From assembly GCA_029776155.1 (NCBI GenBank), contig JAKOTU010000006.1, positions 3,102 through 35,101 on the forward strand: a stretch of DNA of 32,000 bases, written 5' to 3'. Under the pieces are notes generated by a model that searched no databases, had not been told where the DNA came from, and saw only the letters and a program-made list of their open reading frames with translations. This document shows positions 16 to 23,263 of the stretch, one piece after another (the first letter of the stretch is position 1; each line of letters begins with the position of its first letter). Position numbers and translations under genes: made by a program. The stretch comes from Bacillota bacterium (GTDB lineage: Bacteria; Bacillota; Limnochordia; Darwinibacteriales; Darwinibacteriaceae).

Positions 16-741
16 CTACAGCGTGAAATTCGCCCCCAGATAGTACTTCCTGGCCAGTTCGCTTGCTGCCACCTCTTGGGTAGTGCCGGCTACCAGCACT
101 TGCCCCAGGTGGATAATGTAGGCCCGATCAGTAATGCGCAGGGTCTCCCGCACATTGTGATCCGTGATCACAATCCCTAGGTTGCTGGAGCGCAGGCGGG
201 CCACTATTTCCTGAATCTCCCCCACGGCAATAGGGTCCACACCGGCAAAGGGCTCATCAAGGAAGATAAAAGCCGGATCCAGGGCCAGGGCCCTGGCGAT
301 TTCGGTACGCCTCCGCTCCCCGCCGGACAGCTGGTAGCCCCTTTGGTTACGCACCTCTTCCAGCTTGAACTCGGCGAGCAGGCGGCCCAGTTCCCCTTCC
401 CGCTCTGCTTTGGAGAGATCCTCGCGCAGCTGGAGTACTGCCCGCAGGTTTTCCTCCACGGTGAGCTTGCGGAACACCGAGGGCTCCTGGGGCAGGTAGC
501 CTAAGCCCAAACGGGTACGTTTGTACATGGGCAGCAGGGTGATCTCCTCTCCATCGAGGAAAATCCTTCCTGAATTGGGCTTTGTCAGCCCCAGGATCAT
601 ACCGAAGATGGTGGTTTTGCCGGCGCCGTTGGGGCCCAAGAGGCCCACAATCTCACCGCGGTTGGCCTGGAAATCCACGCCCTGCACCACGGTGCGCCGG
701 CCGTACACTTTCACCAGCTGTTCAGCCACTAATTGCGCCAT
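16..741 (-). CDS. lptB: LPS export ABC transporter ATP-binding protein LptB
   Basis: ORF 16..753 (-). It has Walker A GPNGAGKTT, signature LSGGERRR, Walker B FIFLDEPFAGVDP and H-loop ITDHN. The N-terminus MAQLVAEQLVKVYG is LptB-like. I prefer the ATG at 741 (GGTGGAGA upstream) over the GTG at 753. The 5' end overlaps the lpxB stop at 722. Confidence 0.85.
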   Translation of the reverse strand: MAQLVAEQLVKVYGRRTVVQGVDFQANRGEIVGLLGPNGAGKTTIFGMILGLTKPNSGRIFLDGEEITLLPMYKRTRLGLGYLPQEPSVFRKLTVEENLRAVLQLREDLSKAEREGELGRLLAEFKLEEVRNQRGYQLSGGERRRTEIARALALDPAFIFLDEPFAGVDPIAVGEIQEIVARLRSSNLGIVITDHNVRETLRITDRAYIIHLGQVLVAGTTQEVAASELARKYYLGANFTL

Positions 742-1963
742 GCTCTCCACCACATCCAGCCATGGCCAAAACTACCCGCACGGCCCGCTCCACTGCGCCA
801 GGCTCGCCCAACTCCTTGTCGAGCTGGGCAAGGGCCTCCAGCATCCCTTGGCGCACCTTTTGGTCATAGAGGAGTTCGGCAATGGCCTCAGCGATTTTCT
901 GATGATTGACAAAGCCTTGGATAAACTCGGGTATCACATTCTTTCGTAAGATCTTGTTGGTTATGGTCATAGAGGGCTTGCGGTCCAGGACCTTCTCGGC
1001 AAAATAAGTAGAGTGGGGCACCCGGTAGACGGCCAGGGAAGGCACGCCCAAAAGGGAAGCCTCCAGCGATGCTGTGCCAATGGAAGTAATGGCCGCATCG
1101 GCGGCGCTAAGGACGCAGTAAGTGTCCCGCTCCAGGCGCACATTGCTGCAAGGGGCGCCCTCTAGAATCTCTTCCACTACCCCCGTGCGGATGGTGGGGG
1201 CCAGGGAGATCAGCACCTGAAGTTCGGAGTGGTCCTGGGTCACCTGACAAAGGGCTTTCAAAACCGGGGGAAGGACATTCTTCACTTCCACTTCCCGGGC
1301 CCCCGGCAGCACCGCGGCCACTTTGCCCGCTGGGTCGATCCCCAGCCTTTCCCGGGCCTGCTGCGGGCTTAGGGAACGGTCCGCCAGATCCACCAAGGGG
1401 TGGCCCACGAACTCCACATCCACGCCAGCCTCCCTGCACAAAGCGGCTTCTGTGCGGCTGATGGCCAACACTTTATTTACCACGCTGCTGAACTTGCGCA
1501 TATTGGCACTGCTCAACCCCCTACTGAAGGGGGTGTAGTAGTATAACACCGGGATCCCCCGGGACCGGGCAATTTCCAAGAGCTTAAGGCCAAAAACAGG
1601 CAGCCCGATCTGGAGAACCACCGAAGGCTCTTCCTGATCCATGGCTTCCACCACCCGAGCAATGAGCCGCTTGAGCACGGCGGAACCCTTCACGGACTGG
1701 AACGCACCTAAACTGACAATCTCGGAAATATCAAAAAGCAGGCGCACCCCCGCTTCTTCCATCAATGGGCCCCCAACCCCGTAAACAGCTGCCTGCGGGC
1801 ACAACTCATAGATCTTGGCTGTAAGTGCGGCGCCAAAACGGTCGCTGGTATTGTCGCCTCCAATGATCAAAATCCTGCCCGCCCCCTGGACTCTTTCCCC
1901 AGGACTGGCTGCTGCGGACCCTGCCGCGCTGGAGAAGTTCTCTCCGGGTACATCCATCACCAC
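722..1963 (-). CDS. lpxB: Lipid-A-disaccharide synthase (GT19)
   Basis: 413-aa ORF. It has the N-terminal ILIIGGDNTSD motif (equivalent of AGExSGD), IPVLYYYTPF and the EFVGHPLVDL motif typical of LpxB. The GTG start at 1963 lies 6 nt after AAGGAG. The roughly 30-aa Ala/Ser-rich N-terminal extension is unusual. Confidence 0.75.
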   Translation of the reverse strand: MVMDVPGENFSSAAGSAAASPGERVQGAGRILIIGGDNTSDRFGAALTAKIYELCPQAAVYGVGGPLMEEAGVRLLFDISEIVSLGAFQSVKGSAVLKRLIARVVEAMDQEEPSVVLQIGLPVFGLKLLEIARSRGIPVLYYYTPFSRGLSSANMRKFSSVVNKVLAISRTEAALCREAGVDVEFVGHPLVDLADRSLSPQQARERLGIDPAGKVAAVLPGAREVEVKNVLPPVLKALCQVTQDHSELQVLISLAPTIRTGVVEEILEGAPCSNVRLERDTYCVLSAADAAITSIGTASLEASLLGVPSLAVYRVPHSTYFAEKVLDRKPSMTITNKILRKNVIPEFIQGFVNHQKIAEAIAELLYDQKVRQGMLEALAQLDKELGEPGAVERAVRVVLAMAGCGGEHGAISG

Positions 1964-2062
1964 TAGTCACTCCTTGTCGCTGCAAAAATCCCGCAACTCA
2001 CTAAGCTGTTATAGAGGGTTCGGCATGAGTCCAGCATTTCCTCTTTTTCCATATTTTACTCC

Positions 2063-2791
2063 TCAGTTCATGAGCAGCTTCCGGTACAGCCCTGCCACTT
2101 CCGAGCGGGGCTGGGAGAACACCTTTTCTGGCTCGCCCTCCTCCACCACCATGCCTTTGTCCATGAACACAATGCGGTCCGCGGCCCTGAGGGCAAAGGA
2201 TACTTCGTGGGTGACAATTACCATGGTCGTACCTGTGGTCTTTACCAGTTCCTCCATAACCTCCAGCACCTCCCCCACCAGGATGGGGTCCAGGGAGGCG
2301 GTGGGCTCGTCCCAGAGCATGACCTCGGGATTGGCAACCAGCGCCCGGGCGATGCCCACCCGCTGCTGCTGGCCCCCGCTGAGCTGGCTTGGACGGCGCT
2401 GCGCCGCCTCTTTGAGACCCACCTTGTCCAGGGCAGCCAAGGCCCTTTCCCTAGCTTCTTCCCGCTCCATCCCTGCTAGAACCAGGTGGAACATGACGTT
2501 CTCCACGGCGGTGAGGCGGGCAATGAGGTTAAAGTGCTGGAATACAAAGCCTACTCTGCGCCTAAACTGCTGCAGCTCCTGCCCGGCAAGGGCCAGAACG
2601 TCCTGGCCCGCTAACGTAATAGAGCCGCGGTCAGGCTCGGTCAGTCGGTTGATGCAGCGGATCAACGTCGATTTCCCGCAGCCCGAGGGCCCCATGATCA
2701 CCACCGTCTCCCCCTTAGCCACATCCAGATCCACGCCGGCCAAGGCTTCCGTCTTGCCATAGGACTTATACAGATCCCTAATTTCCAGCAC
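2063..2791 (-). CDS. ABC transporter ATP-binding protein, polar-amino-acid (GlnQ/MetN) type
   Basis: 242 aa. It has Walker A GPSGCGKST, Q-loop VFQHFNL, signature LSGGQQQRVGIARAL, Walker B MLWDEPTASLDP and H-loop VTHE. The FALRAADRIVFMDKGMVVEEGEP tail is typical of type-I importer ATPases. The GTG start lies 6 nt after GGGAGGTGG. The gene is 53 bp downstream of the 707-aa membrane protein gene. Confidence 0.85.
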   Translation of the reverse strand: MLEIRDLYKSYGKTEALAGVDLDVAKGETVVIMGPSGCGKSTLIRCINRLTEPDRGSITLAGQDVLALAGQELQQFRRRVGFVFQHFNLIARLTAVENVMFHLVLAGMEREEARERALAALDKVGLKEAAQRRPSQLSGGQQQRVGIARALVANPEVMLWDEPTASLDPILVGEVLEVMEELVKTTGTTMVIVTHEVSFALRAADRIVFMDKGMVVEEGEPEKVFSQPRSEVAGLYRKLLMN

Positions 2792-2844
2792 CAGCTTCCA
2801 CCTCCCATCTTTATAATCCTACTTTTTGTATCTTGCTCCTGGCA

Positions 2845-4968
2845 TCAAAACTGCTGCTTGAACCTGTTAAGCACATTAAGCAGCCCGGGCCTGCCGGAGG
2901 GGATAACCACTTCCCGCATGATCTGCACATGGGACAGTCCCAGGGCCTGGCCGGCCATCAGCTCCATGCCGTCCACGGGGCTGAACCGCTCCGAAAGGGC
3001 CGCCACCGCAGCCCCCAGTCCAAAGCCCAAAGTCGCGATGACCGCCGGCGTGAACAGGGGAATCTGCCCGCCTGCGAGCTTGTAAATGCTGCTCAAAAGG
3101 GCACTGCCCACCACTCCCCCCAGGAGGAGCAGGGGATCCAACCAGCGCAGCCAGGGTCTGGCGGGGGCCTTCATTCCAGCGCGCAGCTGCTTGAGGGTAC
3201 TGAAAATGGTGGCATGGTCCAGCACCAAGGCGATCAGGGTAAAGACAATGGCCAGAAGCCCTGCCACAATGGAGCGCACTTCCCGCAAAATGCGGAAGAT
3301 CTCGCCCCGGGCGTCGGGGGAGATCATGCCCGCGGAGGTGGAGTAGGTGTGCAGATACGGGTTGTCCAGTTCCCTCTGGAACAGCTTTTCCAGTTCCTTT
3401 TCATTTGGTTTCTTGCCCTCAATAAGGAGCTGGACGCGCTCTCCGGGGATCACCTGGCCGCCCAAATAGGTGTTGATCAAGCGGATAGACTGGCCGATTT
3501 CCGCATCGCTCAGATCGGGCAGGGTGTCCCGGACAAAGCCGATCTGTTCCATAATGGCCGCCACATCGATCTGCTGCACGTTGGCGATCTGGGTGCTGAT
3601 CCCGTCCAGGCTGCGGCGCATCTCCTCAATATCCAAATTCTCCAGGGAATCCAAGGACTCTTCGCCGCTGCTCAAAACGCTCTGGGCCAGGGTCTGGAAC
3701 AGGCCGTTGAGCAAAAGGGTAAGCAGGAACTGCTCTCCAGAGGCTCCGCCCTCACCCCTTGTGATGCCCTCATTGAGTTGGCGCATCTGCACCTGGAGCA
3801 CCTCTAACTGCATGAGGGCTTCTTGGAAGGTGACCAGCACCGCCTCAGCATTGTCCACCGCGGCGCTGGCCTGCACCGCCAGCTCCTCCAACTCCGCCAA
3901 GAGCCGCAGGCTTTCCTCCACGGCATAGGCCAGGCGGTAGCGTTCGTTTTCGATCTCCACTTTCCCCGCAAACTCGCCGGGGACACCATCGCTTTGCAGG
4001 CGAAAGCCCTGGTGCACAACGGTATCGGTGGTCTGCACCGGGGAACCTTGGATGATCATGCCTTCGGCCAGCTCCCCAAATACACCAGTCACTTCCACAA
4101 TCAGCTCCTGGCCGGCATCGGCCTGGCCTTCCAGCACCAAGCGCTCACCCACCGCCAGGGCAATCCCGGGAGCGGGGAAAATGCGCACTTTGGAGGCGTA
4201 ACTGCCCAGAAAGTCCCGCATTTCCACCAGGGTCTTCAAAAAAGCGTCCAAGTCTTCTCCGTACTGGGCGGAGGTGATGTTGGAAAAACGGCTGGCCTGC
4301 AGGCTGTCCTGGGCGCGCAAAATCTTGAGAGCCTGTTCCCCCACTTCCTGGGTATCCACGGCAAAGCCCATGGGAAAGCGCAGCTCCAAAATGTGGTACT
4401 GTTCCAAGATGCCCTCAATGGCTGCTGCTGCCTTATCCAACTCAGCCTCCCCTTCTACCAGCACCACCAGGTTGTTTCCATCCTTTACGGCAAAGCGCAC
4501 TCCGGAAAGGGCTTCGATCCGCTCCCTCAGTTCCTCACGCACCCCAGGGTGCACGCCCCGGATGAGCACACTGGGCTGCACCATAAGCGTATAACCGTTC
4601 AGACCGGGAACCGCGCCAAAAAAGGAGGTGATGCTCTCCAACACCTCCCTGGTCCGATACTCTGGCGGCAGCCCGAAAAACACATTGGCCTGCCCGGCAA
4701 TGATCAGGCTCTCCTTCAGTTTGAAACCGGGGAAGGACTGCCCGCCGATGCGCTCCAGCTCCCGCAAGGCCGCCTCCTTGGCCTCGGCGCGGATATGCAG
4801 AATCAGGTCATATTCGCCGTAACCGCCGATCAGCTCTTCCAGGGTATCGCCGAAGTACGCATCAATGGCCCAGGCAATGCCCTGGGAAAAAACGGCGCCG
4901 ACCACAATGGTGACAACGAGCAAAAGCGCCAGATCTTTATAGAATCCATCGCGGAAAAAATCGAGCAT
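2845..4968 (-). CDS. Atypical ABC transporter membrane component: 4 predicted TM helices, ~530-aa extracytoplasmic domain, C-terminal EAA-type coupling motif
   Basis: 707 aa. There is one N-terminal hydrophobic helix (LALLLVVTIVVGAVF). A long soluble region follows, with coiled-coil-like stretches (LAELEELAVQASAAVDNAEAVLVTFQEALMQLEVLQVQMRQL). Three C-terminal helices lie at about residues 567-583, 613-629 and 638-658, and the TM2-TM3 loop is K/R-rich. The tail MAGQALGLSHVQIMREVVIPSGRPGLL aligns position by position with the EAAxxxGxxxxxxxxxIxLP loop of binding-protein-dependent permeases. The ATG at 4968 lies 7 nt after GGAGG. I did not recognise a family for the large domain. Confidence 0.7.
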   Translation of the reverse strand: MLDFFRDGFYKDLALLLVVTIVVGAVFSQGIAWAIDAYFGDTLEELIGGYGEYDLILHIRAEAKEAALRELERIGGQSFPGFKLKESLIIAGQANVFFGLPPEYRTREVLESITSFFGAVPGLNGYTLMVQPSVLIRGVHPGVREELRERIEALSGVRFAVKDGNNLVVLVEGEAELDKAAAAIEGILEQYHILELRFPMGFAVDTQEVGEQALKILRAQDSLQASRFSNITSAQYGEDLDAFLKTLVEMRDFLGSYASKVRIFPAPGIALAVGERLVLEGQADAGQELIVEVTGVFGELAEGMIIQGSPVQTTDTVVHQGFRLQSDGVPGEFAGKVEIENERYRLAYAVEESLRLLAELEELAVQASAAVDNAEAVLVTFQEALMQLEVLQVQMRQLNEGITRGEGGASGEQFLLTLLLNGLFQTLAQSVLSSGEESLDSLENLDIEEMRRSLDGISTQIANVQQIDVAAIMEQIGFVRDTLPDLSDAEIGQSIRLINTYLGGQVIPGERVQLLIEGKKPNEKELEKLFQRELDNPYLHTYSTSAGMISPDARGEIFRILREVRSIVAGLLAIVFTLIALVLDHATIFSTLKQLRAGMKAPARPWLRWLDPLLLLGGVVGSALLSSIYKLAGGQIPLFTPAVIATLGFGLGAAVAALSERFSPVDGMELMAGQALGLSHVQIMREVVIPSGRPGLLNVLNRFKQQF

Positions 4969-5058: not shown

Positions 5059-5628
5059 CTATTCCCGCTCGGTGTTGAACAGTCCCTGGAAGGCGCCGAA
5101 GAACTGCAGTTCCCTCGTTTCTAGGAACATGACGAACTTCTCGCCCTCTAATACCCCATCTTCAAACTCCACCTTCACCTGGCCGGTGAACACAGCCCTA
5201 TCTGTTTCCTCATCGTAATCCAGCTGCTGGGCGTACACGGTGGCGTCCTCCGTGACCACAACGACGCTGCCCACGGCCTGGAGCCTCTTTTCGCTCCCGA
5301 AATACTCCACCGTCTCCGCGGTGAGGGTAAAATCCTCTTTGGTGAGGGTGGCCCCGCCGGTGAAGATCAGGTAGTCATCTTCCGTGCGCCACTCCATTTT
5401 CTGGCCCACCAGGCGTACTTCCTCGAAGGTAACGTGAATGGCCGCCCCGGCAAAGTCCCTTACATCCGCGGCAAACACCCCTGATTCCCGGTTGTAACGC
5501 CCGGTGGCCGCATCCGCAGGTACTCCCATAATCTCCAGCCTGCCCCTTTGGCCCTGGGCCTGACACGCCCCCGATGCGCCCATGATAACCAAGGCGAGCA
5601 CAAAGAGCACAATCCACTTCTTAGTCAC
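5059..5628 (-). CDS. lptA: Periplasmic LPS transport protein LptA (OstA-like beta-jellyroll)
   Basis: ORF 5059..5649. I prefer the GTG at 5628, which lies 6 nt after GGAGGAGGGGG and gives MTKKWIVLFVLALVIMGASGACQA, a signal peptide. The rest is repetitive OstA_N-like beta strands (LTAETVEYFGSEKRLQAVGSVVVVTEDATVYAQQLDYDEETDRAVFTGQVKV). The gene overlaps the lptC 3' end. Confidence 0.65.
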   Translation of the reverse strand: MTKKWIVLFVLALVIMGASGACQAQGQRGRLEIMGVPADAATGRYNRESGVFAADVRDFAGAAIHVTFEEVRLVGQKMEWRTEDDYLIFTGGATLTKEDFTLTAETVEYFGSEKRLQAVGSVVVVTEDATVYAQQLDYDEETDRAVFTGQVKVEFEDGVLEGEKFVMFLETRELQFFGAFQGLFNTERE

Positions 5629-6256
5629 TGCCTGCCCCCTCCTCCACAACTACATTTCCGTAAAAGTCCAGTACTTCCCCGTCCAGATCGTAGACCGCTT
5701 CTTCCAGCTTCCACAAGAGGGTTCCCTCCCGGATTTCCACGCTGCGCCTCAGGTGCACCTGGGCCTGCTCCGTATCCAGGCTCATCTCCTCAGCTGTGAT
5801 CTCCAGGCCCTGCCAAAGCATGCGCACAGGACCCGGGGAGAACAGCCGGCCGGTACGCCCCTCCCACTCCAAGTAATCGCTTTCCAGGCGGAACCCGTCT
5901 TCACCTTCCACCACAACCGGGCCGTGCAGCTTCAAAAGCTCGGCTCTGCGTTCCCACTGGGCCCGGGGTGTGCGGATGTTTAGATAAGGCTCCCCATCCT
6001 GGAACACCACCATTTTCTCCAGATCGCTTAAGGTAACCAGATTCCCTTCCTGGAGCACACTGCGGCTGATGATCTCCCACTGCCGCTGGCCACCTCGCCG
6101 CCCCACCAGCCGGCTTTCCACCAGCTGGACACTGGGGGGCACGCTCACCGCAGGGGGAGACGGCTGGAGCAGAAAGCGCAGGGTAAAAAAGAGGATGACC
6201 CCAACCAGGACTGCGCCCGCGGCCAGTATTCCCTTTGCCTTGGCTGTCAGGCTCAT
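5621..6256 (-). CDS. lptC: LPS export system protein LptC (membrane-anchored)
   Basis: About 211 aa. It has an N-terminal TM anchor (GILAAGAVLVGVILFF) followed by an LptC/OstA-like beta-rich domain. The ATG at 6254..6256 overlaps the lptD TGA (TGATG coupling). It lies immediately upstream of lptA, as in canonical lptC-lptA. Confidence 0.6.
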   Translation of the reverse strand: MSLTAKAKGILAAGAVLVGVILFFTLRFLLQPSPPAVSVPPSVQLVESRLVGRRGGQRQWEIISRSVLQEGNLVTLSDLEKMVVFQDGEPYLNIRTPRAQWERRAELLKLHGPVVVEGEDGFRLESDYLEWEGRTGRLFSPGPVRMLWQGLEITAEEMSLDTEQAQVHLRRSVEIREGTLLWKLEEAVYDLDGEVLDFYGNVVVEEGAGSD

Positions 6257-8391
6257 CACTCCTTCACATCGATAATATCCGCCACATCCTCCAGGTCAAA
6301 CAGGCTCAAGCCCCCTTGGCTGTCCCAGCCAATGGGCAGCGTGGGGAAGGCGTTGATGGTGAGCTGCACCGCAAAGCGGCCCGCCACATGGTCATAGGAG
6401 AACCCCAGCTGACGGCAGTGCAGATCCCTGCTGATGGTAATCTGCCCCTTGGTGAACTGCTGGGCTGCCGGAGCATAGATGCTGTCATAACTCACCTTCC
6501 AAGCTGAGCCCACGGGCAGGCTGAAACGCAGATCCACCCGCTCCAGCTCACGGCTTGGCGGCCTGTAGCGCAGACCCAGCTTCAGGCTGAACTGATCATG
6601 CTTGTATTCGGCCATGGGCACCAAACGGGTCCAGCTTCTGGTGTTGAGATCATAACTGGCGTAAAGGTCCAAGGTCCAGCGCTCGGAAGGCTTGAGATAG
6701 GCATTCAGAGTCAAAGTGCTGAAGCGCTTGTTTACAAAATCATAGACGGTAGAGGCATAACCCCGCGCATTCCCCCGGCTGTAGCTAAGGCGCAGGCTCA
6801 GATCCTCTAGTTTTCCCTGGGCATCGAACTTGAAGGGCGTGCTGCCCCACACATCCCGGCGCCGATAGGTACTGCTAAAAGAAAGGTGTTTGCCCAGGTT
6901 TTGATTTAAGGAGACCCGCCCGTACAACCAGGCCTGGCTGCTGCCATCCGAATACACCGCGCCGTTCAAATCGCCCTGGTAGGTGAGGCTCGTACCTGCG
7001 CGGGGACGCCAGGTCCTGGCCCTTAACGCCACCTGGCCGTAGCCCCTGCTTTGGATAACCATGGAGGGGGTTTCTTCATAGTGCCCCAGAACCAGCTGCC
7101 CTTGGAGGGGCAGGCTGTTCAGGCCCAGATCGCCTATTTCCCACTTCAGCTCCGGCCTGCGCTGTAGGCTGCGCCAATCCTTGGTCCCGGTGTCCAGCAG
7201 ATCCGGGTTGAACTGCTGCTCCATGGTAAGGGTCAACCGGTGCTTCCCCTGGTTGTACACGGCGGCCAGGAGGTAGTTCATGAGCCGCACCTCTTCCGTG
7301 GTGCGCTTTTGGGCGTAGCTGCCCTCCACATTGAGGGTCAAACGATCGCCCAGGGGCTTGGACCACTGCATGCCAGCGCTGGTCTCTTCCTTGGTGGTGG
7401 CCTGGGGATTCTTTTTGTAGGTCAGCCAAAGCTTGCCCTTAAGATCCCCTGCGCTCACATGCAGGGCGGTGTCGGAGCTGATCTCGTCCTTCAACCAGGT
7501 CTTCTCCACGCTGTTCTTGGTGGCAAAGGTCCAGCTGTCCTTGGTTAAGCTGTGTTCCCAGGCCGCTTTGTAGTGCTTTTCCGCCGCGGTGGGCACCCCC
7601 CACAGGTACAAGTGCCCCTGGCCCAGTTCTTGGAGCTTGTAGTGGTGCTTCACGCCTGCACCCAGCCCCAAGCGGGTGTACAGGTCCACATAGAGGTTGC
7701 CGTAGGAGTTCTCAGTGAAGAAATAGTTGAAGGCGCTCTTGATAAAGTACCCTTCATAGTCGCCGTAGCCCACCACGGGCAGGCTGACCAGAAGGTCTTC
7801 CAGATCCCGCCCTAGAGGCACTACTAAATAGGGCCAATAAAAAAGGGGGATCTGCCCTTCGTAGTACACCACATGGCGGATGATGGCCTTGTCACCGGGG
7901 ATAAACTCCATTTCTTTGGTGACCAGGCGGTAGTGGCTCTGCTCCAAATCGCAGGTGGTGAAGGCGGCCTGGGCAATGGAGTACTGCTCCTGATCAAAGA
8001 GGATCAGGCGCCCAGAAGCGTACACCGTCCCATCGGGCACGGCAAGCTCGGCGCGCACTTCTTCAAAGGACCCTTCGCCCGTATTTAGGTTGTAGACCAA
8101 AAAGGCACCCCTTATCTCCTGCCCATCCTGGATCAGGCGCACATCCCCCTCCAAGGTGACTAAGCCCTCGGCCAAATCGGCGCGCAGCACACTACCCAAG
8201 AGCATCAGCCCGTCCACGTGCACCTCCACATCCCCTTCAGCCGTAAACACCTGGCTTTCCAGATCGTAAGAGCCGGTTTTGCTCGCGGCAATGCGCACCC
8301 CCTGTTCCGCACTGAAAGCAGGGGGCGCCGGCCAGATGAGCACCACAATTAGAGCCGCGACCAGAAGCGGTGCGCCCTTCCCCAGCTGCAT
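6256..8391 (-). CDS. lptD: LPS-assembly outer membrane protein LptD (OstA)
   Basis: ORF 6256..8442. I prefer the ATG at 8391 (GGGGAGAG SD), giving the signal peptide MQLGKGAPLLVAALIVVLIWPAPPAFSA. It has an N-terminal OstA_N-like repeat (AEGDVEVHVDGLMLLGSVLRADLAEGLVTLEGDVRL). It also has the FTTCD motif and IPLFYWPY, both typical of LptD. A long C-terminal region has an amphipathic beta-strand pattern. Confidence 0.75.
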   Translation of the reverse strand: MQLGKGAPLLVAALIVVLIWPAPPAFSAEQGVRIAASKTGSYDLESQVFTAEGDVEVHVDGLMLLGSVLRADLAEGLVTLEGDVRLIQDGQEIRGAFLVYNLNTGEGSFEEVRAELAVPDGTVYASGRLILFDQEQYSIAQAAFTTCDLEQSHYRLVTKEMEFIPGDKAIIRHVVYYEGQIPLFYWPYLVVPLGRDLEDLLVSLPVVGYGDYEGYFIKSAFNYFFTENSYGNLYVDLYTRLGLGAGVKHHYKLQELGQGHLYLWGVPTAAEKHYKAAWEHSLTKDSWTFATKNSVEKTWLKDEISSDTALHVSAGDLKGKLWLTYKKNPQATTKEETSAGMQWSKPLGDRLTLNVEGSYAQKRTTEEVRLMNYLLAAVYNQGKHRLTLTMEQQFNPDLLDTGTKDWRSLQRRPELKWEIGDLGLNSLPLQGQLVLGHYEETPSMVIQSRGYGQVALRARTWRPRAGTSLTYQGDLNGAVYSDGSSQAWLYGRVSLNQNLGKHLSFSSTYRRRDVWGSTPFKFDAQGKLEDLSLRLSYSRGNARGYASTVYDFVNKRFSTLTLNAYLKPSERWTLDLYASYDLNTRSWTRLVPMAEYKHDQFSLKLGLRYRPPSRELERVDLRFSLPVGSAWKVSYDSIYAPAAQQFTKGQITISRDLHCRQLGFSYDHVAGRFAVQLTINAFPTLPIGWDSQGGLSLFDLEDVADIIDVKE

Positions 8392-8407
8392 AGCTCTCTC
8401 CCCACTT

Positions 8408-13115: not shown

Positions 13116-13220
13116 TGTCCTGCCTCCCACATAGTAGTATTCAATCTTCTTCCTTTATTTCGCCCACCCTGGACAGATTCCTCTTGCCAAGTCCGGGGAC
13201 GAATGACAGAAAAAACCAGC

Positions 13221-16383: not shown

Positions 16384-16440
16384 AGCCAATCCTCCCTTGC
16401 TTTACCCATTACAATTCTTGACAGCAGGGTGTTTTCCTGC

Positions 16441-16478
16441 CACAAAATAAACTCCACAACGCCGGGTTTGTGGAGTTT
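16441..16478 (-). terminator. Strong intrinsic terminator after flgJ
   Basis: The minus strand reads AAACTCCACAA-ACCCGGCG-TTGTGGAGTTT followed by ATTTTGT. The stem is a perfect 11 bp. It starts 7 nt after the flgJ TAG. Confidence 0.8.
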
Positions 16479-16485
16479 AGAGGCT

Positions 16486-16813: not shown

Positions 16814-17929
16814 CTAAAGAATGATCAGCTCGCCGAACAGCGCGCCTGCCGCCTTGACAGCCTGCAAAATGGCGATAATATCCCGGGGGGATGCCCCCAC
16901 AGCATTTAAGGCATCCACCAGTTCCTGCACGCTGGGCGCCCCGCCCAGCATGGTGGTGGTGCCGTAGCGCTGCTCTGGGCCCCTTAATTCTCCAAAGAAG
17001 CCCCCGGTTCCTCCAAACATATCCTGGTTTTCTCCATTGCCCACCTGCACCTTGAGGTTCCCATGGGAAACCACCGCGGGAGCAATGCGCACCTGCGCGC
17101 CCATGACTACGGTGCCTGTACGCTCATTGATCACTACCCGGGCATTGCTGTCTGGACGGATGGGCAGCTCCTCGAGTTTGGCAATGAAGGGCACCACATT
17201 GCTCAAGTAGTCACTAGGAACTTGGATCTCCACCGTGGCCTGGTCCCGGGCCTTGGCCAGGCCCGCGCCGAACACCGCGTTCACCACCTCCGCCAGGCGG
17301 TGGGCAGTGGTGAAGTCCGGCTCCATGAGCACCAGCGAAACCCAGCCCTCCGCGGCCAGATCCTTCGTCTGGAGCTCCCGCTCCACTATGGCCCCGTTGG
17401 GCACCACCCCCACAGTGGTATGGGTGCTCTGGGCTCCGGAGCCCCGTCCCGCGACCCCGCCGATGGATACGGGGCCCTGGGCCACGGCATACACCTGCCC
17501 GTTGGCCGCCTGGAGGGGAGTCTGCAGTAGGTACCCTCCCTGGAGGCTGCGGGCATCGCCGATGGAAGAAACGGTCACATCAATGCGGTCCCCCGCCCTG
17601 AGGGAAGTGGGCAGATCTGCTGTGACCATGACCGCGGCGATGTTGCGCATGCGCAGGTCATCTGGAGATACGGAAATCCCGAAGTTTTCCAGCATATTGG
17701 CGATCATCTGCACGTTAGCCCGGGAGCCCGAACCGTCCCCCGTGCCCTGCAGCCCCACCACCAGGCCCAGTCCGAAGATCTGGTTATCCCGCACGCCCTG
17801 CACCCTGGCCACATCCTTAATCCGGACTATGGGCGTATCGTAGCGGATGGGCTCCACGCTCTGGGCCCAGGCTGTGCCTGCGCCGAACAGGATGGCCAAC
17901 AAAGCCAGCCAAGCAAGTTTGCTCCTCAT
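16814..17929 (-). CDS. flgI: Flagellar P-ring protein FlgI
   Basis: 371 aa. It has a signal peptide. VRIKDVARVQGVRDNQIFGLGLVVGLQGTGD and the C-terminal SPRDIIAILQAVKAAGAL are FlgI hallmarks. The SD is GAGGAGGA. Confidence 0.95.
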   Translation of the reverse strand: MRSKLAWLALLAILFGAGTAWAQSVEPIRYDTPIVRIKDVARVQGVRDNQIFGLGLVVGLQGTGDGSGSRANVQMIANMLENFGISVSPDDLRMRNIAAVMVTADLPTSLRAGDRIDVTVSSIGDARSLQGGYLLQTPLQAANGQVYAVAQGPVSIGGVAGRGSGAQSTHTTVGVVPNGAIVERELQTKDLAAEGWVSLVLMEPDFTTAHRLAEVVNAVFGAGLAKARDQATVEIQVPSDYLSNVVPFIAKLEELPIRPDSNARVVINERTGTVVMGAQVRIAPAVVSHGNLKVQVGNGENQDMFGGTGGFFGELRGPEQRYGTTTMLGGAPSVQELVDALNAVGASPRDIIAILQAVKAAGALFGELIIL

Positions 17930-17949: not shown

Positions 17950-18546
17950 CTAGAACAGCCAGTTGAACAGGCGCGTGAGCAGCCCCGGCTTGTTCTTCTC
18001 GCCCACAATGCCTGTGCCCACGAAGGATATTTCCGCATCGGCCACAAAGGTGGAAAGCACAGTGTTGTCCGGGGCAATATCTTCAGTGCGTACCAAGCCG
18101 GTGAGCACAATTTCCTGTTCCTCGCCGTTCACGACAATCTTCTGCCGGCCTTCAATGCGCAGGGTGTTATTGGCAAAGGTTTCCACCACCCTAGTGGTGA
18201 TCTTAGCCGTAAGGCTCCCGCCCCTGGTCACGGCGCCGTCCGCGGAGAAGCTGTCCCCTCCCCCCAAACGCAGCAGGGGAATGAGATCGGCCAGCACACC
18301 TCCGCCGGGCCCCACGGACACTTCAGCATCCTTGCCCGTGCTGGTGGTAGCCGTCTGCCGAGCCTGGGCCTGCTCCACAATGATCACCGTGACCAGATCC
18401 CCTGGCCTCCTGGCTTTGCGATCCGCAAACAGGGAAGAAGGCTGGTCCACTGGAAACAAAGACTCTGCTAAGGCAAATGCAGAGCTGAACATCAAAAGCC
18501 CCGCAGCGCACAGCAGGACTATAGCAACTAAGGTGAACCGTCTCAC
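17950..18546 (-). CDS. flgH: Flagellar L-ring protein FlgH
   Basis: 198 aa. SLFADRKARRPGDLVTVIIVEQ and ITTRVVETFANNTLRIEGRQKIVVNGEEQEIVLTGLVR match FlgH. The GTG start overlaps the flgA TGA. The signal peptide lacks a canonical lipobox (VLLC; AFA-LAE is a likely SPase I site). Confidence 0.9.
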   Translation of the reverse strand: MRRFTLVAIVLLCAAGLLMFSSAFALAESLFPVDQPSSLFADRKARRPGDLVTVIIVEQAQARQTATTSTGKDAEVSVGPGGGVLADLIPLLRLGGGDSFSADGAVTRGGSLTAKITTRVVETFANNTLRIEGRQKIVVNGEEQEIVLTGLVRTEDIAPDNTVLSTFVADAEISFVGTGIVGEKNKPGLLTRLFNWLF

Positions 18547-19331
18547 GGCATACCTGCCCCCTTTGTATGCACCTGAACTGTGTGGGCATCAATTACTTCG
18601 CCGGTCACCCTCTGCCGGGAAAGGGTGTTTTCCACTTCGATTAAATCCCCCAAACCACCGCTCTGGCGGGCGATGCCCGGTGCGGTTACGGTCACGCTCC
18701 CGGTGTGCACTAGGATCGTAACCGCAGTTCCACGCTCAATGAGGGGTACTGCCTCCACATGGAGCTCGGTGAGGGGAGTACCGGCCAGCACCATCCTGGT
18801 GGTGCGCAGGCCGAGAAACTCTTCCAAACTGCGGCCTTCGCCCCAGCCGCCCCTGATCTCCCGCAGTTCAACTTGGAGATCGTCCGCGGTGAGAATCTCC
18901 CCCCGCCTTAGGTCCCGGGCGGCCACCACCACTTCCTGAACTAGGCGGTCTGCCCCCTGCGCGGGAGGGCTGTCAGCCGGTTCTTCCGTCACCCGGAACA
19001 CCCGCACGCTCTCGGCCCCCTGGAACTCCACCAGGCTGGGATGCACCCCACCCTGACGCAGACGGACTTCGATATGGCCCCTGGTCAATACCCGGGAACT
19101 GCCCATGCTCGGGGCGGCTCCCACTTTGATGGCCGCGAGCTGCTGCACCAGATCGGAGGGGCCCTGAAGCTCAGCCACTTCCCCCAGCAGGAGTTCTGAA
19201 CCGGTCACGTTGGCCGTCTCCGGCAGGAACACCACCGCCCTCTCCTGCTCAGCCCCCCAGGCCGCGGGGCCGGGCCAGAGAGTGAGTGCGATCAGTGCGG
19301 CCAACGCCACCAACCTCCTGGCGATCATCAA
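18543..19331 (-). CDS. flgA: Flagellar P-ring formation chaperone FlgA
   Basis: 262 aa. It has a signal peptide and a SAF-like domain. The C-terminal pattern GTAVTILVHTGSVTVTAPGIARQSGGLGDLIEVENTLSRQRVTGEVID is typical of FlgA. The start is the TTG at 19331 or the ATG at 19328. Confidence 0.8.
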   Translation of the reverse strand: MMIARRLVALAALIALTLWPGPAAWGAEQERAVVFLPETANVTGSELLLGEVAELQGPSDLVQQLAAIKVGAAPSMGSSRVLTRGHIEVRLRQGGVHPSLVEFQGAESVRVFRVTEEPADSPPAQGADRLVQEVVVAARDLRRGEILTADDLQVELREIRGGWGEGRSLEEFLGLRTTRMVLAGTPLTELHVEAVPLIERGTAVTILVHTGSVTVTAPGIARQSGGLGDLIEVENTLSRQRVTGEVIDAHTVQVHTKGAGMP

Positions 19332-19334
19332 AAA

Positions 19335-20123
19335 CTACCTGCGCAGATTATTGGCGGCCTGGAGCATCTCGTCGGAAGCCTGAATCGCCTTGGAATTGCT
19401 TTCATAGGCCCTTTGGGCCACGATCATGTTCACCATCTCTTCCACCACCTGGACGTTGGACATCTCCAGGAAGTTCTGGGCCAAGGTGCCGAAACCATCC
19501 ATGCCGGGCTGCCCCACAATGGGCGCTCCGCTGGCGGCGGTGGCTCGGTAGAGGTTGCGGCCCACGCTCTGCAACCCCGCGGGGTTCACAAAGCGGGCGA
19601 TCATAATGGTATCCCTCTCCTCTGGGTCGCTCACCCCGGGGTACATAACGGCCACAGTCCCATCGGAACTGATGCTGACCTCCACCGCCTCTTCGGGAAT
19701 CTGAATTTCCGGCTCAATGGGAAAACCATCCGAGGTGGTGAGGCGGCCGTAGGCATCGATTTTAAAGGCCCCATCCCGGGTGTAGCAGATGGTCCCATCG
19801 GGCAGGAGCACCTGGAAGAACCCATCCCCCTCAATCACCACATCCAGGGGATTGTCCGTCTGCTGGTACATACCTTGGGAGAACACCTTCTGGGTGGCCA
19901 CCGTCCTTACCCCGTGGCCCACCTGGATGCCCGTGGGGATCTGGGCTCCCGTGGTGGAGGGTGTCCCCGCATACTTCACGGTCTGGTAGAGCAGGTCCTG
20001 AAAATCGACCCGGCTCTTTTTGAAACCGACGGTATTCACGTTGGCCAGGTTGTTGGAGATGACATCAATTTTGGTCTGCTGGGCGGTCATGCCCGAGGCA
20101 GCCGTCCACAAAGCGCGCATCAT
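19335..20123 (-). CDS. flgG: Flagellar distal rod protein FlgG (FlhP-type)
   Basis: ORF 19335..20162. I prefer the ATG at 20123, 9 nt after AAGGAGGG, giving [35 protein letters not shown]. The C-terminus is [36 protein letters not shown]. Confidence 0.9.
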
Positions 20124-20184
20124 AACAAAACGCCCTCCTTTTGCTGTCCGCAATTTAAGCACAGCCTAAGAGAGGGGTATGGAT

Positions 20185-20280: not shown

Positions 20281-21015
20281 CTATACATCGTTGATAATCT
20301 TGCCCAGCGTTTCATCGAAGGCCTGCACCACTTTCTGGTTGGCCTCGTAGGCCCGCTGGATGTTGATGAGATTCACCATTTCCCTAACCACATTCACATT
20401 GGCCAGTTCAATCATGCCCGGAGCGATTACCGCCCGGAAGCGGAAAGGATCGCCGGCTTCCGGCGTAGCTTCAAACAGGTTGGCTCCTCGGCGGATCAGC
20501 CCATTGCGGTCATTGAACTCCACCACCAACAGCCTGTCCACCACCTGGCCGTCCACCAGCACCTCGCCCGTTTCGCTGAACAGTACCTTCCCTTCACCCA
20601 CATAAATGGGGCCGTTTTCACCCAAGACCAAGTTCCCATCTAAGGTGGCCAAAAGGCCGCTGGGGTTCACCGCAAACCGTCCATCCCGGGTGTAGCGGTT
20701 GCCCTCGGGAGTCTGGATGACAAAAAAGCCTGCCCCCACCAGGGCCACGTCCAAGGGGTTCTCCGTTGTGCGGAGCACGCCGGGTGCGAAGGATGTGTGG
20801 CTGCCCTCCACCAAAGCACCGGTGCCCAAGGCACCCAGCAGGTGGGACTGCCCTTGATGGACCTTGTACAATGGGCGCTGGGGCGAGGAGTAAATGTGCG
20901 GGGTCTGCCGCTGAAAACCTGCCGTATCCACGTTGGCCAGGTTGTTGCTGGCCACATCCATGCGCATGGTTTCCACCAACATGCCCGATGCTGCTGTGTA
21001 AATTCCGCGGAGTAT
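20281..21015 (-). CDS. flgF: Flagellar proximal rod protein FlgF (FlhO-type), probable non-canonical ATA start
   Basis: The ATG-delimited ORF is 20281..20982. The same frame stays open upstream to the TAG at 21028..21030 and encodes ILRGIYTAASGM, the conserved rod-protein N-terminus. An SD, AGGGGGGTGATCC, ends 7 nt before the ATA at 21013..21015. The C-terminus is VVREMVNLINIQRAYEANQKV. Confidence 0.8.
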   Translation of the reverse strand: MLRGIYTAASGMLVETMRMDVASNNLANVDTAGFQRQTPHIYSSPQRPLYKVHQGQSHLLGALGTGALVEGSHTSFAPGVLRTTENPLDVALVGAGFFVIQTPEGNRYTRDGRFAVNPSGLLATLDGNLVLGENGPIYVGEGKVLFSETGEVLVDGQVVDRLLVVEFNDRNGLIRRGANLFEATPEAGDPFRFRAVIAPGMIELANVNVVREMVNLINIQRAYEANQKVVQAFDETLGKIINDV

Positions 21016-21060
21016 AGGATCACCCCCCTACTTTCCTGATCACCTTATCGGCATGGGGAC

Positions 21061-21089
21061 AAAAAACTTTAGGGCGCTCAGCGCGCCCT
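21061..21089 (-). terminator. Intrinsic terminator/attenuator after mbl
   Basis: The minus strand reads AGGGCGC-GCTGA-GCGCCCT followed by AAAGTTTTTT. The stem is 7 bp and contains the mbl stop codon. Confidence 0.6.
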
Positions 21090-22094
21090 GGTGTAACTGG
21101 CAATAAACTGGCTGCGGTTGGCAGTGCGATCCAGGGAATCCAGGATTTCGCCCGTACCCCGTACCACACAGCTTAACGGATCATCGGCCAAGGTCACCGG
21201 CACTCCCGTTTTTTCCTGCACCAGGCGGGCCATCCCGTCCAGCAAAGCCCCGCCACCAGTGAGGGCCATGCCCTTGTTCACAATGTCCGCGGCCAGCTCA
21301 GGCGGGGTAATCTCCAGAACACCCCGGATGGCATCCACGATGGTCACCAGAAGCTCCTCCAAAGCCGGGTAGATATCCACCGAGCTGATTTCCACGGTGG
21401 CGGGAAGCCCGGTCACCAGATCCCTGCCCCGAATGCTCATCTTGCGATCCGGGGTGGGATAGGCACTGGCTATGGAAATTTTGATATCCTCGGCCGTGCG
21501 TTCGCCAATGGCCAGGTTGTACACCTTTTTGATATGGCGGCTGATGGCTTCTTCCATATGGATGCCGCCTACTCGCACCGACTGGCTTGTCACCTCGGAA
21601 CCTAAAGAAATTACGGCGATATCAGTTGTACCGCCGCCGATATCCACAACCATGCTGCCGCTGGGAGCAGCAATGTCCAGCCCGCAGCCAACAGCCGCAG
21701 CAATGGGCTCTGTTACCAGGTAGACTTCCTTCGCTCCAGCCAGGTTGGCCGCTTCGATCACGGCCCTTTTTTCTACAGTGGTAATGCCCGATGGGACGCA
21801 GACCATAACCCGGGGGCGAAAGCCCCGTCCCGCTGCTTTGCGGATAAAATACTTGAGGATCTCCTCTGTTATTGTAAAATCGGCAATAACCCCTTCTTTC
21901 AAGGGCCTGATGGCCTGGATGTTTCCAGGGGTCCGCCCGATCATCTCCCGGGCTTCCTCACCAATCGCGCAGATCTTCTGTGTATTTACATCTACCGCCA
22001 CCACTGCGGGTTCGTGGATCACAACGCCCTTGCCGCGTACATGTACTAATATATTCGCAGTACCCAGATCAATGCCAATATCTTTACCGAACAC
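21078..22094 (-). CDS. mbl: Rod-shape-determining actin homologue MreB/Mbl
   Basis: ORF 21078..22157. I prefer the GTG at 22094, 6 nt after AGAGGGGGA, giving MFGKDIGIDLGTANILV, the canonical MreB N-terminus. DIGGGTTDIAVISLG and ALTGGGALL motifs are present. The position after spoIIID mirrors B. subtilis mbl. Confidence 0.9.
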   Translation of the reverse strand: MFGKDIGIDLGTANILVHVRGKGVVIHEPAVVAVDVNTQKICAIGEEAREMIGRTPGNIQAIRPLKEGVIADFTITEEILKYFIRKAAGRGFRPRVMVCVPSGITTVEKRAVIEAANLAGAKEVYLVTEPIAAAVGCGLDIAAPSGSMVVDIGGGTTDIAVISLGSEVTSQSVRVGGIHMEEAISRHIKKVYNLAIGERTAEDIKISIASAYPTPDRKMSIRGRDLVTGLPATVEISSVDIYPALEELLVTIVDAIRGVLEITPPELAADIVNKGMALTGGGALLDGMARLVQEKTGVPVTLADDPLSCVVRGTGEILDSLDRTANRSQFIASYTRAR

Positions 22095-22178
22095 TATTTG
22101 TCCCCCTCTGCCGCTACGCATAACTCCTTGCCATAGTGTTCGCCACAGAAGGGGCAAATCCTTTTTTCACCAGATGAT

Positions 22179-22445
22179 CTACGAAGCCCGGCTGGCTTTC
22201 TTCACCCCATATTTGCGCCTGGTGGCCTCGCCTCCCCGGATATGGCGTTCCGATTTATTTATCTCAAGAACCTTTTTCACCTGTTCGGCCAGTTCCTTGT
22301 TGATGCGTGGTAAGCGCTCGGTCACGTCTTTATGCACTGTGCTCTTGCTTACCCCAAAGACCAGAGCCGCCTGCCGCACAGTGGCGTTGGTTTTCACAAT
22401 ATAGAGGCTAACGTCCACTACCCGCTTGCGGATATAGTCTCTCAT
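22179..22445 (-). CDS. spoIIID: Stage III sporulation transcriptional regulator SpoIIID
   Basis: 88 aa. MRDYIRKRVVDVSLYIVKTNATVRQAALVFGVSKSTVHKDVTERLPRINKELAEQVKKVL matches the SpoIIID HTH protein almost throughout. Confidence 0.9.
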   Translation of the reverse strand: MRDYIRKRVVDVSLYIVKTNATVRQAALVFGVSKSTVHKDVTERLPRINKELAEQVKKVLEINKSERHIRGGEATRRKYGVKKASRAS

Positions 22446-22473: not shown

Positions 22474-22502
22474 ATGTATATGCCGCGAGGCCTGCATTAT
22501 GC
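22474..22502 (-). promoter_or_regulatory. Putative sigma-E-like (mother-cell) promoter of spoIIID, overlapping a 12-bp palindrome
   Basis: The minus strand reads GCATAAT (22496..22502), then 13-15 nt, then CATATACATG. The -35 fits the remembered consensus kmATAww. The -10 matches 6 of 8 positions of CATACAhT and contains the ATACA core. The perfect palindrome TATACATGTATA lies at 22469..22480, 23 nt upstream of the ATG. Confidence 0.35.
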
Positions 22503-22506
22503 TTGG

Positions 22507-23214
22507 CTAGTGGAGAAACGCCTCCGGGTTCACAGGCTGGCCGTTGAGGGTAAGGCCGAAAAACACCCGCCCTGTGCTCGCGGGCGCGGCTATGTTCTGG
22601 TTCTGCTGCACCTGCTCGCCGACGCTCACCTTAATACCCGTAATGGAACGGTAAATGCTGGCCCAGCCGCTGCCGTGCTCGATTACCAGCTCCATTTCGG
22701 CTCCGCTGGAATTGACCGCAGCCACCTTCCCCGGCAGCACAGTGCGCACAGCATCACCCGTGGCCGTAAACTCCACGCCCGCGTTAAAGCGCCAATCGCC
22801 GTACACGGGGTGGCGGTACCAGCCGAAGGGAGTAGTGATCTCACCCTGCACGGGCCAGATCAAGCGCTCAAAGGAGACCACCGGCTCCGGCTCAGGCTCC
22901 GGTCTGGGTTCGGTGGGCTCAGGCATGGGGTTTGGGGGTGGCTCCACCATCACCACTTGGGTGGGACCGTCCAGCACCCACGGATAAAGCTGGGCAATCA
23001 CGCTCTGCACCTTCTCCTGCACCAGCTCGTCCAGCTCCTCCCTGGTCACAGGAGGAACCGCCGCAGGCTGAGGCTGGGGCCAAGCGCGGTAGGCGCCCAG
23101 GCCGATCCCCGCGAGCAGGGCAAGGCCGATGACTACCCCCGTGATCACCCTCCGGTATTCCCGCCTGTACCAGGCCCTTTTCAATCGATCTCGGAAGCTC
23201 TGCCATACTTGCAT
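22507..23214 (-). CDS. SpoIIQ-like membrane protein with degenerate LytM/M23 domain
   Basis: 235 aa. It has a basic N-terminus plus one TM helix (VITGVVIGLALLAGIGLGA), a Pro/Glu-rich linker (PPPNPMPEPTEPRPEPEPEP) and then an M23 fold (LIWPVQGEITTPFGWYRHPVYGDWRFNAGVEF...LVIEHGSGWASIY...GEQVQQNQNI...). The HxxxD motif is replaced by NAGVE, and HLH is replaced by VFF. The SD is AGGTGGTGA. Confidence 0.55.
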   Translation of the reverse strand: MQVWQSFRDRLKRAWYRREYRRVITGVVIGLALLAGIGLGAYRAWPQPQPAAVPPVTREELDELVQEKVQSVIAQLYPWVLDGPTQVVMVEPPPNPMPEPTEPRPEPEPEPVVSFERLIWPVQGEITTPFGWYRHPVYGDWRFNAGVEFTATGDAVRTVLPGKVAAVNSSGAEMELVIEHGSGWASIYRSITGIKVSVGEQVQQNQNIAAPASTGRVFFGLTLNGQPVNPEAFLH

Positions 23215-23233
23215 ACTATCACCACCTAGGCGC

Positions 23234-23263
23234 TAGTATGCTCCTAAAATTTGGATTCTATGC
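23234..23263 (-). promoter_or_regulatory. Putative forespore (sigma-G/sigma-F type) promoter of the spoIIQ-like gene
   Basis: The minus strand reads GCATA (23259..23263), then 18 nt, then CATACTA (23234..23240). This fits the B. subtilis sigma-G consensus GHATR-N18-CATXHTA at every specified position. The -10 ends 19 nt upstream of the ATG. Confidence 0.5.

Follow-up and report, generated by a model that had tools for sequence, protein, structure and literature searches.

The stretch of DNA analysed here, called the window below, comprises 32,000 nucleotides (32 kb) of a Bacillota bacterium from the family Darwinibacteriaceae of the class Limnochordia (assembly GCA_029776155.1, contig JAKOTU010000006.1, positions 3,102 to 35,101 of the forward strand). 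It carries genes for building an outer membrane (OM) in direct continuation of sporulation genes, and a divergent lpxB-like gene is the only gene of the lipid A pathway that remains there. Gene identities were assigned by Pfam and NCBIfam profile matches, and every gene of interest lies on the minus strand. In the direction of transcription, the order starts with a ywlE/ywlF-like fusion, upp and the genes for dCMP deaminase, a TagO/WecA-type GT4 enzyme and UDP-GlcNAc 2-epimerase (27569-31780), followed by atpA, atpG, atpD and atpC (23316-27551; F1 genes only). After atpC come the gene of a SpoIIQ-like M23/LytM protein with a transmembrane (TM) segment (22507-23214; PF01551), spoIIID (22179-22445; PF12116, 137 bits), mbl (21078-22157; PF06723, 443 bits), flgF (20281-20982), flgG (19335-20162), flgA (18543-19331; PF13144), flgH (17950-18546; PF02107), flgI (16814-17929; PF02119) and the rod-binding gene flgJ (16486-16803; PF10135). 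The two distal rod genes flgF and flgG, recognised by their rod-protein Pfam domains, are the flhO and flhP of B. subtilis, and the mbl-flhO-flhP arrangement is thus the one named in the original prediction. All three gene sets that it had placed on one strand (spoIIID with the SpoIIQ-like gene, mbl with flhO and flhP, and a diderm set) were recovered on the minus strand.

The OM genes begin beyond a terminator-like hairpin (16448-16479; a 12-pair stem, then a T run) that lies between the flagellar and the OM units. They are led by the gene of an NAGPA phosphodiester glycosidase domain protein (14977-16389; PF09992, 152 bits) and that of a secreted protein with an S55 (SpoIVB-type) serine-peptidase domain (13221-14954; PF05580). 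Next are bamA, with POTRA repeats and an Omp85 barrel (11382-13130; PF01103, 192 bits; PF07244, 97 bits), an open reading frame (ORF) of uncertain start (10678-11335, longest frame to 11448; no Pfam match), the gene of the chaperone Skp (10218-10691; OmpH family PF03938, 49.3 bits) and a gene for a 199-aa secreted protein (9513-10112), whose sole match is a weak one to YjbH. The series continues with a single lptF/lptG-family permease gene (8408-9484; PF03739, 308 bits), an lptD-like gene for an outer-membrane protein of 728 aa (6256-8442), lptC (5621-6259; PF06835, 33.8 bits; TIGR04409, 42.8 bits with a cut-off of 38) and an lptA-like gene for a periplasmic bridge protein (5059-5649; PF03968, 33.5 bits with a cut-off of 20.4, under the cut-off of TIGR03002). 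At its end stand the gene of a 707-aa membrane protein (2845-4968; no Pfam match), that of an ATP-binding cassette (ABC) ATPase of the FtsE/LolD/MacB type (2063-2791), the lpxB-like gene for a GT19 glycosyltransferase (722-1963; PF02684, 183 bits) and lptB, which encodes the ATPase of the ABC transporter exporting lipopolysaccharide (LPS) (16-753; TIGR04406, 349.5 bits with a cut-off of 240). Past the window on the same contig, lptB is followed by a DUF3084 gene and then by the gene of an SLH-domain protein with a coiled coil, the sequence of which ends at the contig edge; no barrel is visible in the available part.

The diderm set had been described as full. Its flgA/H/I, bamA, lptF/G, lptD, lptC, lptA, lpxB and lptB are present, whereas LpxA, LpxC, LpxD, LpxI, LpxK, KdtA and TamB were not found. 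For the whole genome, no Pfam match was obtained for LpxC, KdtA, LpxK, TamB, the C-terminal domain of LpxA or the N-terminal domain of LpxD, and tblastn with the LpxA, LpxC, LpxD and LpxI of Limnochorda pilosa found nothing, LpxH not being searched separately. By tblastn, the LpxB of L. pilosa did find the lpxB of the window (34% identity). The whole genome has one LptF/G gene, and of two proposed skp-like genes only that at 10218-10691 holds. The other candidate (10678-11448) has no OmpH or other Pfam signal and no similarity to skp, and a hairpin (11351-11336) lies inside its longest frame.

To place the gap in lipid A genes within the class, 81 Limnochordia genomes were surveyed (families labelled f1, f2, f6, etc.). 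The window belongs to the GTDB order DTU010, which corresponds to the SILVA group MBA03 and was named 'Ca. Darwinibacteriales' in a paper that is silent on outer membrane, LPS and sporulation (PMC12663870). LpxC occurs in none of the 26 other genomes of this order and in none of the 4 genomes of family f6, but in 48 of the 50 remaining ones; most of the 30 LpxC-negative genomes are more than 90% complete. LpxK and KdtA/WaaA are restricted to one family (2 of 81 genomes) and absent from the other 79, and TamB occurs in none of the 17 genomes of the window's family and is patchily distributed in other families. In six LpxC-positive genomes, the order lptD-lptC-orf707-ABC leads to lpxC, a nucleotidyl transferase gene, lpxA, lpxI and lpxB, after which come a second glycosyltransferase gene, an msbA-like ABC exporter gene, sugar-modifying genes, lptB and a second lptF/G-family gene. 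In the window, and likewise in three further genomes without LpxC, no gene separates the ABC gene from lpxB or lpxB from lptB; since the contigs run unbroken there, missing data are unlikely to be the cause of the gap. Generally, the class displays a stepwise erosion of the LPS pathway: one family has the full pathway including LpxK and KdtA, most families have LpxA, LpxC, LpxI and LpxB without LpxK and KdtA, and DTU010 and one further family have LpxB alone. Even in LpxC-positive Limnochordia, the L. pilosa-type genome among them, the pathway seems to end with the LpxB product or to proceed by unknown enzymes, and their lipid A may be without 3-deoxy-D-manno-oct-2-ulosonic acid (Kdo) and the 4'-phosphate. 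Deletion of the lipid A genes with the Lpt system kept looks new. As a side observation, the LpxC-positive genomes carry directly after lpxB a second, weak LpxB-like glycosyltransferase gene (frames of 420-670 aa; for instance 7855-9252 in locus L056), and none was seen in LpxC-negative genomes.

The remaining LpxB-like protein is matched in 80 of the 81 genomes, with 155-207 bits in LpxC-negative and 265-337 bits in LpxC-positive ones. We aligned it to E. coli LpxB (5w8s) and relatives. In the protein from the window, the N-terminal motif AGEASGD has become GGDNTSD; IDFPGFN has become IGLPVFG, with Gly in place of the Asp aligned with E. coli D98; and SPxAWAW has become TPFSRGL, in which the Trp aligned with E. 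coli W126 is replaced. The donor-side motifs of the C-terminal part, PGxR and GTAxLE, are retained. Different LpxC-negative families altered different motifs and form long branches in the tree; in families f1 and f2, both the conserved Trp and the residue aligned to E. coli D98 are gone. No lineage has a disrupted copy of the gene, and its ratio of nonsynonymous to synonymous substitution rates (dN/dS) against a congener is about 0.13, near that of bamA (0.10-0.15) and below that of lptA, lptC and lptD (about 0.2), rough figures given that dS is near saturation. Judged from these alignments, the acceptor-side motifs of LpxB are altered in a gene that appears to be under purifying selection.

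We consider it likely that the window holds an ancestral envelope locus of diderm Firmicutes which was inherited vertically, that DTU010 deleted the lipid A genes in place while keeping the OM and Lpt genes, and that the cell builds an OM without canonical lipid A. The alternative that survives best is that lipid A is still made, the lpx genes being either unassembled or replaced by enzymes diverged beyond detection, with Lpt and LpxB canonical. It draws on the incompleteness of metagenome-assembled genomes (MAGs), on an LpxB-like protein that passes the Pfam cut-off with donor-side motifs kept, and on the retention of a complete Lpt set. Against this, all 30 genomes sampled from the affected families lack LpxC, most of them at more than 90% completeness, four genomes have uninterrupted sequence with no gene at the sites of lpxC-lpxA-lpxI and of the msbA-like gene, searches with queries taken from the class itself give no match, and the LpxB proteins of f1 and f2 have lost the D98-aligned residue and the conserved Trp. 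We regard continued lipid A synthesis as improbable.

The Lpt system itself consists in this locus of lptB, lptF/G, an lptC above the TIGR04409 cut-off, an lptA-like gene above the Pfam cut-off only, and the lptD-like gene. A profile built from four LptD-like orthologues matches Neisseria LptD (7omm; E-value 1.9e-11) in the region of the N-terminal jellyroll and the beginning of the barrel. With one LptF/G gene in the whole genome, the two-permease LptB2FG layout does not occur; LpxC-positive relatives have a second copy after lptB. Compared with the congener, the lpt, lpxB, bamA and flg genes have dN/dS values of 0.05-0.23 (0.08 for lptB) and the flgA/H/I/J module values of 0.07-0.24, and the products of lptB and lptF/G are 88% and 89-92% identical, respectively. 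Purifying selection acts on skp as well as on bamA, flgH and flgI. The genome also contains four TolC-like OEP genes. These data bear on the view that the OM genes are decaying relics of a lineage that is functionally monoderm or nearly so. The loss of the lipid A genes, of TamB (0 of 17 genomes in the family) and of the second LptF/G, together with the fast evolution of LpxB, would agree with decay; the retained genes, however, are intact across an order-level radiation at dN/dS values of 0.05-0.23, lptF/G and lptB keep 88-92% identity between congeners, FlgH and FlgI, useful only with an OM, are conserved, and the genome has TolC-like genes and an SLH (OmpM-like) gene. Decay to relics is a little less probable still than continued lipid A synthesis.

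The locus resembles the diderm-Firmicute OM locus (PMC5007114; PMC11456536) in that a single locus unites bamA, skp, lpt genes, lpxB, flgF/G/J/A/H/I, DUF3084 and an SLH/OmpM-type gene in a sporulating Firmicute host. It differs from that locus in that the genome of the window is without lpxA, lpxC, lpxD, lpxI, lpxK, kdtA, an msbA-like gene and tamB, and has one lptF/G; tamB adjoining bamA, a trait of the diderm-Firmicute locus, is missing here and present in a Negativicute locus (L064). Published descriptions assign an LPS-containing OM to all three lineages, namely Negativicutes, Halanaerobiales and Limnochordia (PMC5007114; PMC11456536). Another close counterpart is the locus in the complete genome of L. 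pilosa (AP014924.1), where the order from atpC through bamA-skp is identical and an orf707-type gene and the ABC ATPase gene are present after it; yet it has lpxD, lpxC, lpxA, lpxI, a canonical lpxB, an msbA-like gene and a second lptF/G-family gene where the window is empty.

A further comparison concerns the LPS-free spirochaetes. LPS-free Borrelia burgdorferi is reported to have an LptD homologue (bioRxiv 10.1101/2022.12.21.521298; PMC10353723), and LptDE-dependent export of surface lipoproteins is reported as well (PMC12065857). The likeness lies in an Lpt-type trans-envelope system kept without the lipid A pathway, which we take as a lead only and not as a tested mechanism. The difference is that an lpxB-like gene is linked to lptB here, a linkage not described for spirochaetes, and that the lineage is another one. 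In a profile search, LptF/G-family genes also matched in the LPS-free controls Thermus, Deinococcus and Thermotoga.

The junction between sporulation and OM genes is not special to this genome, as might have been supposed from the original prediction. The order atpAGDC (where present)-M23-spoIIID-mbl-flgFGAHI-NAGPA-S55-bamA-skp-orf199-lptFG-lptD was found in 19 independent Limnochordia assemblies from several studies. In the genome of L. pilosa, a spore-former with two membranes that has been grown in culture, atpC is followed by one gene, M23, spoIIID, mbl, flgF, flgG, flgA, flgH, flgI, a small gene, NAGPA, S55, bamA, skp and then lpx genes. A homologue of the S55 protein led to one Negativicute genome, after which members of that class were picked via FlgI; it turned out that (atp)-M23-spoIIID-mbl-flgF-G-A-H-I-J-NAGPA-S55, followed by an MlaF-like ATPase gene, is present in 14 of 14 sampled loci of flagellated Negativicutes. 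In locus L064, for example, mlaE, mlaF, mlaD, tolC and tamB come after S55. The flanks of the OM genes in the window, spoIIID-mbl and NAGPA-S55, are those of Negativicutes and L. pilosa. Because the junction occurs in the 19 Limnochordia assemblies, in L. pilosa and in all 14 Negativicutes, it is old and common to two distant diderm Firmicute classes. The predicted bearing of the junction on the ancestry of the OM, and the placing of the OM cluster directly on the ywl-upp-atp-spoIIID-mbl backbone, agree with this gene order.

In B. subtilis and Clostridia, the backbone runs ywl-upp-atp ... spoIIQ/spoIID ... spoIIID-mbl-flhO-flhP, in the same order as in the window, and in Clostridia an M23 SpoIIQ-type gene adjoins spoIIID, as it does here. 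The monoderm block stops after the two rod genes, whereas the window continues with flgA/H/I/J and the OM genes; in non-Firmicute diderm phyla, flgF-flgG-flgA-flgH-flgI form a single block. The shared junction agrees with vertical descent from a diderm ancestor, and monoderms would have retained a truncated spoIIID-mbl-flhO-flhP stub. Antunes et al. 2016 (PMC5007114) describe the OM locus, including flgF/G/J/A/H/I, in Negativicutes and Halanaerobiales, list DUF3084 among its conserved genes, and propose a conserved locus from which flgA/H/I and the OM genes disappeared in monoderm Firmicutes. The OM cluster was extended to 46 Limnochordia genomes by Taib et al. 2020, as cited in PMC11456536. 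The type of locus is thus already known, and its arrangement is present in the published L. pilosa genome.

Horizontal gain of the OM cluster and its insertion beside the sporulation backbone would be in line with the nearest FlgI outside the class, which among the loci recovered, by a search that finds only close pattern matches, belongs to Armatimonadota, Ignavibacteriota and Spirochaetota and not to other Firmicutes. The comparison of the two halves that the original prediction had proposed gave no compositional signature of transfer: the relative synonymous codon usage (RSCU) of the OM half correlates with that of the backbone half at r = 0.96, and the correlation with the rest of the genome is 0.97-0.98. 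Since Limnochordia and Negativicutes share the junction with NAGPA and S55, any transfer would be older than both classes. Vertical descent is also favoured by published phylogenies (PMC5007114; Taib 2020 as cited in PMC11456536), and OM-gene trees that unite Limnochordia, Negativicutes and Halanaerobiales in congruence with the species tree are already in the literature. We judge horizontal gain very unlikely.

The host is uncultured and represented by a MAG of 2.33 Mb in 96 contigs (97% complete, 6% contamination), in which the window lies on a 94-kb contig. Homologues with about 80% identity bear the names Candidatus Darwinibacter acetoxidans or Limnochordia bacterium, and the nearest loci come from anaerobic-digester MAGs (UBA3914, AS-series bins, 'Peptococcaceae bacterium 1109' and a Limnochordia bin). 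Tetranucleotide distance and GC content of every 4-kb window stay within the spread of the genome, and no step appears near 16.4 kb, where the original prediction had located a possible join. All block genes, including bamA and the F1 atp genes, are single copy in the bin. The core sporulation genes sought elsewhere in the genome were found: two Spo0A-type genes, spoIVA, spoIIIAE and spoIIIAH. In the class as a whole, SpoIVA was matched in 77 of 81 sampled genomes. The two Spo0A_C matches lie at C70:44581-44871 and C14:130318-130617, in frames of 253 and 254 aa; a paralogue or contamination of the bin may account for the presence of two. The contig is not chimeric, and the cluster is native to a spore-former-type Firmicute genome. 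A chimeric assembly of a spore-forming Firmicute with a Gram-negative near 16.4 kb, for which the estimated contamination and the strong terminator at the proposed junction could be quoted, has a practically negligible chance against a junction recurring in 19 independent assemblies, the complete genome of the L. pilosa isolate and 14 Negativicutes genomes, flat tetranucleotide distance and GC with the same codon usage on both sides, and single-copy block genes.

Terminator-like hairpins follow atpC (23289-23268), mbl (21089-21071), flgJ (16479-16448) and bamA (11351-11336), so the sporulation, flagellar and OM sets appear to be neighbouring, separate transcription units rather than one operon. 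The SpoIIQ-like protein has 235 aa, with a basic N-terminus, one TM helix, a Pro/Glu-rich linker and a LytM domain. This domain is degenerate, since FNAGVE replaces HxxxD and VFFG replaces HxH, and all three metal ligands are changed, a greater extent of change than in B. subtilis SpoIIQ. Its partner SpoIIIAH is encoded elsewhere in the genome. The forespore-type promoter that had been proposed for this gene was confirmed as a consensus pattern: a putative promoter GCATA-N18-CATACTA (23234-23263, minus strand) lies 20 bases upstream of the start, has no other match on that strand of the window, and is kept in 9 species-level relatives while the spacer sequence varies. We take it to fit the forespore sigma-F/G consensus. 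Ahead of the OM genes (bamA, lpt), no sigma-F/G/E/K-like motif was matched, a weak negative obtained with simple consensus patterns only, and the sole sporulation-type putative promoter would thus serve the SpoIIQ-like gene. The suggestion that the junction informs how an OM is handled during engulfment finds nothing in the locus to sustain it, as these crude patterns, too, gave no sporulation-sigma motif ahead of the OM genes.

Four genes of the block were outside the list of the original prediction, namely those for the ABC ATPase, the 707-aa membrane protein, the S55 peptidase and the NAGPA glycosidase. In both Limnochordia and Negativicutes, NAGPA and S55 stand side by side, as a conserved pair, between flgJ and the OM genes. 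Neither is mentioned among the OM-locus genes in the part of Antunes et al. 2016 consulted (PMC5007114). The structural model of the S55 protein has a predicted local distance difference test (pLDDT) score of 81; its N-terminal part superposes on SpoIVB (9lnf; 105 residues, root-mean-square deviation 2.3 Å, probability 1.0) and on Deg-type proteases, and beta-rich domains follow the protease-like part. GMSGSP and GHPF are invariant in 30 homologues. Its fixed place beside OM genes in both classes suggests that it may be a periplasmic protease linked to OM biogenesis. In the model of the 707-aa protein (pLDDT 75), the N-terminus has a TM helix and the C-terminus a helical bundle, and ferredoxin-like domains in tandem and a long coiled coil are also present; a fold search with it gave no convincing PDB match. 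Homologues were found only in Limnochordia-type MAGs. This protein is probably the permease that works with the ABC ATPase. Wherever Limnochordia loci were examined, whether LpxC-positive or LpxC-negative, the gene pair lies between the lpt and lpx genes. The 199-aa protein gene is conserved between skp and lptF/G across the class, with the orf707 homologue in the place of lptF/G in L. pilosa, and its product is possibly a small OM protein.

Several details concern the backbone and the flagellar genes. The frame at 30845-31780 fuses a low-molecular-weight phosphatase domain (YwlE-like) to RpiB (YwlF-like), and atpA begins 17 bases past the UDP-GlcNAc 2-epimerase gene (region 23316-28675). The genes atpB, atpE, atpF and atpH were not seen in the window, and in some relatives (loci L016 and L019) the atp genes are missing from this site. 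The first-ATG frame of flgF is short by about 13 residues of the conserved rod N-terminus, with the Pfam match starting at profile position 14 of 31; the true start may lie upstream at a non-standard codon (region 20967-21030). The ORF at 16341-16775 was rejected as a gene: it is in the wrong frame, with dN/dS of about 1, and the real gene there is flgJ.

The reading of an ancestral diderm locus from which the lipid A genes were deleted in place has several points to its disadvantage. The genomes are MAGs, this bin being 97% complete with 6% contamination, and dS near saturation makes the dN/dS values rough. For LptD, the match extends over the jellyroll and the first strands of the barrel, and a complete barrel with an LptE would be an assumption. 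That the order has an OM and no lipid A is a genomic inference. LpxK and KdtA are missing even in LpxC-positive genomes, so the ancestral lipid A of Limnochordia may already have been atypical. Among diderm Firmicutes, the synteny comparison covers Limnochordia and Negativicutes. No statement was found in the literature that any Limnochordia lack LPS genes, but Taib et al. 2020 was seen only as cited and may report part of this. Any cargo named for the retained Lpt system is conjecture.

With these points weighed, the deletion of lipid A genes from a vertically inherited locus would have proceeded as follows. The series of atp genes, SpoIIQ-like gene, spoIIID, mbl, flgF-G-A-H-I-J, NAGPA, S55 and OM genes, common to L. 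pilosa and Negativicutes, would be vertically inherited, and the monoderm spoIIID-mbl-flhO-flhP would be the remnant after loss of everything past flgG. The SpoIIQ-like gene would stand under its own forespore promoter, with terminators parting the spoIIID-mbl, flagellar, bamA and lpt units. In DTU010, lpxC, lpxA and lpxI would have been deleted in place between the ABC pair and lpxB, along with lpxD and, around lptB, the msbA-like gene, the glycosyltransferase genes and the second lptF/G-family gene. Purifying selection would have kept lptB, one lptF/G, lptC, lptA, lptD, bamA, skp, the P- and L-ring genes and the motif-altered lpxB-like gene. The Lpt bridge would then carry other cargo: surface lipoproteins, or a glycolipid of another kind that the altered LpxB might make.

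A more specific proposal, which we put forward tentatively and with some doubt, is that DTU010 are diderm endospore-formers without lipid A, in which a simplified Lpt bridge (LptB, one LptF/G, LptC, LptA and LptD) and a re-purposed LpxB-family enzyme deliver a non-LPS glycolipid or surface lipoproteins. If it is true, and with TamB also lost in the family, the DTU010 lineage would be a living intermediate on the way from two membranes to one.

In conclusion, the boundary of spoIIID-mbl-flgFG with the ring genes, NAGPA, S55 and the OM genes is found in two classes, and the monoderm locus resembles a truncated form of it; the junction gives modest support to a two-membraned origin of Firmicutes. 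DTU010 is among the most abundant bacterial groups in anaerobic digesters, and the envelope description of a dominant taxon of biogas reactors would change. The erosion series within a conserved locus is natural material on what an OM needs after lipid A is lost and on the cargo that the Lpt bridge may carry.

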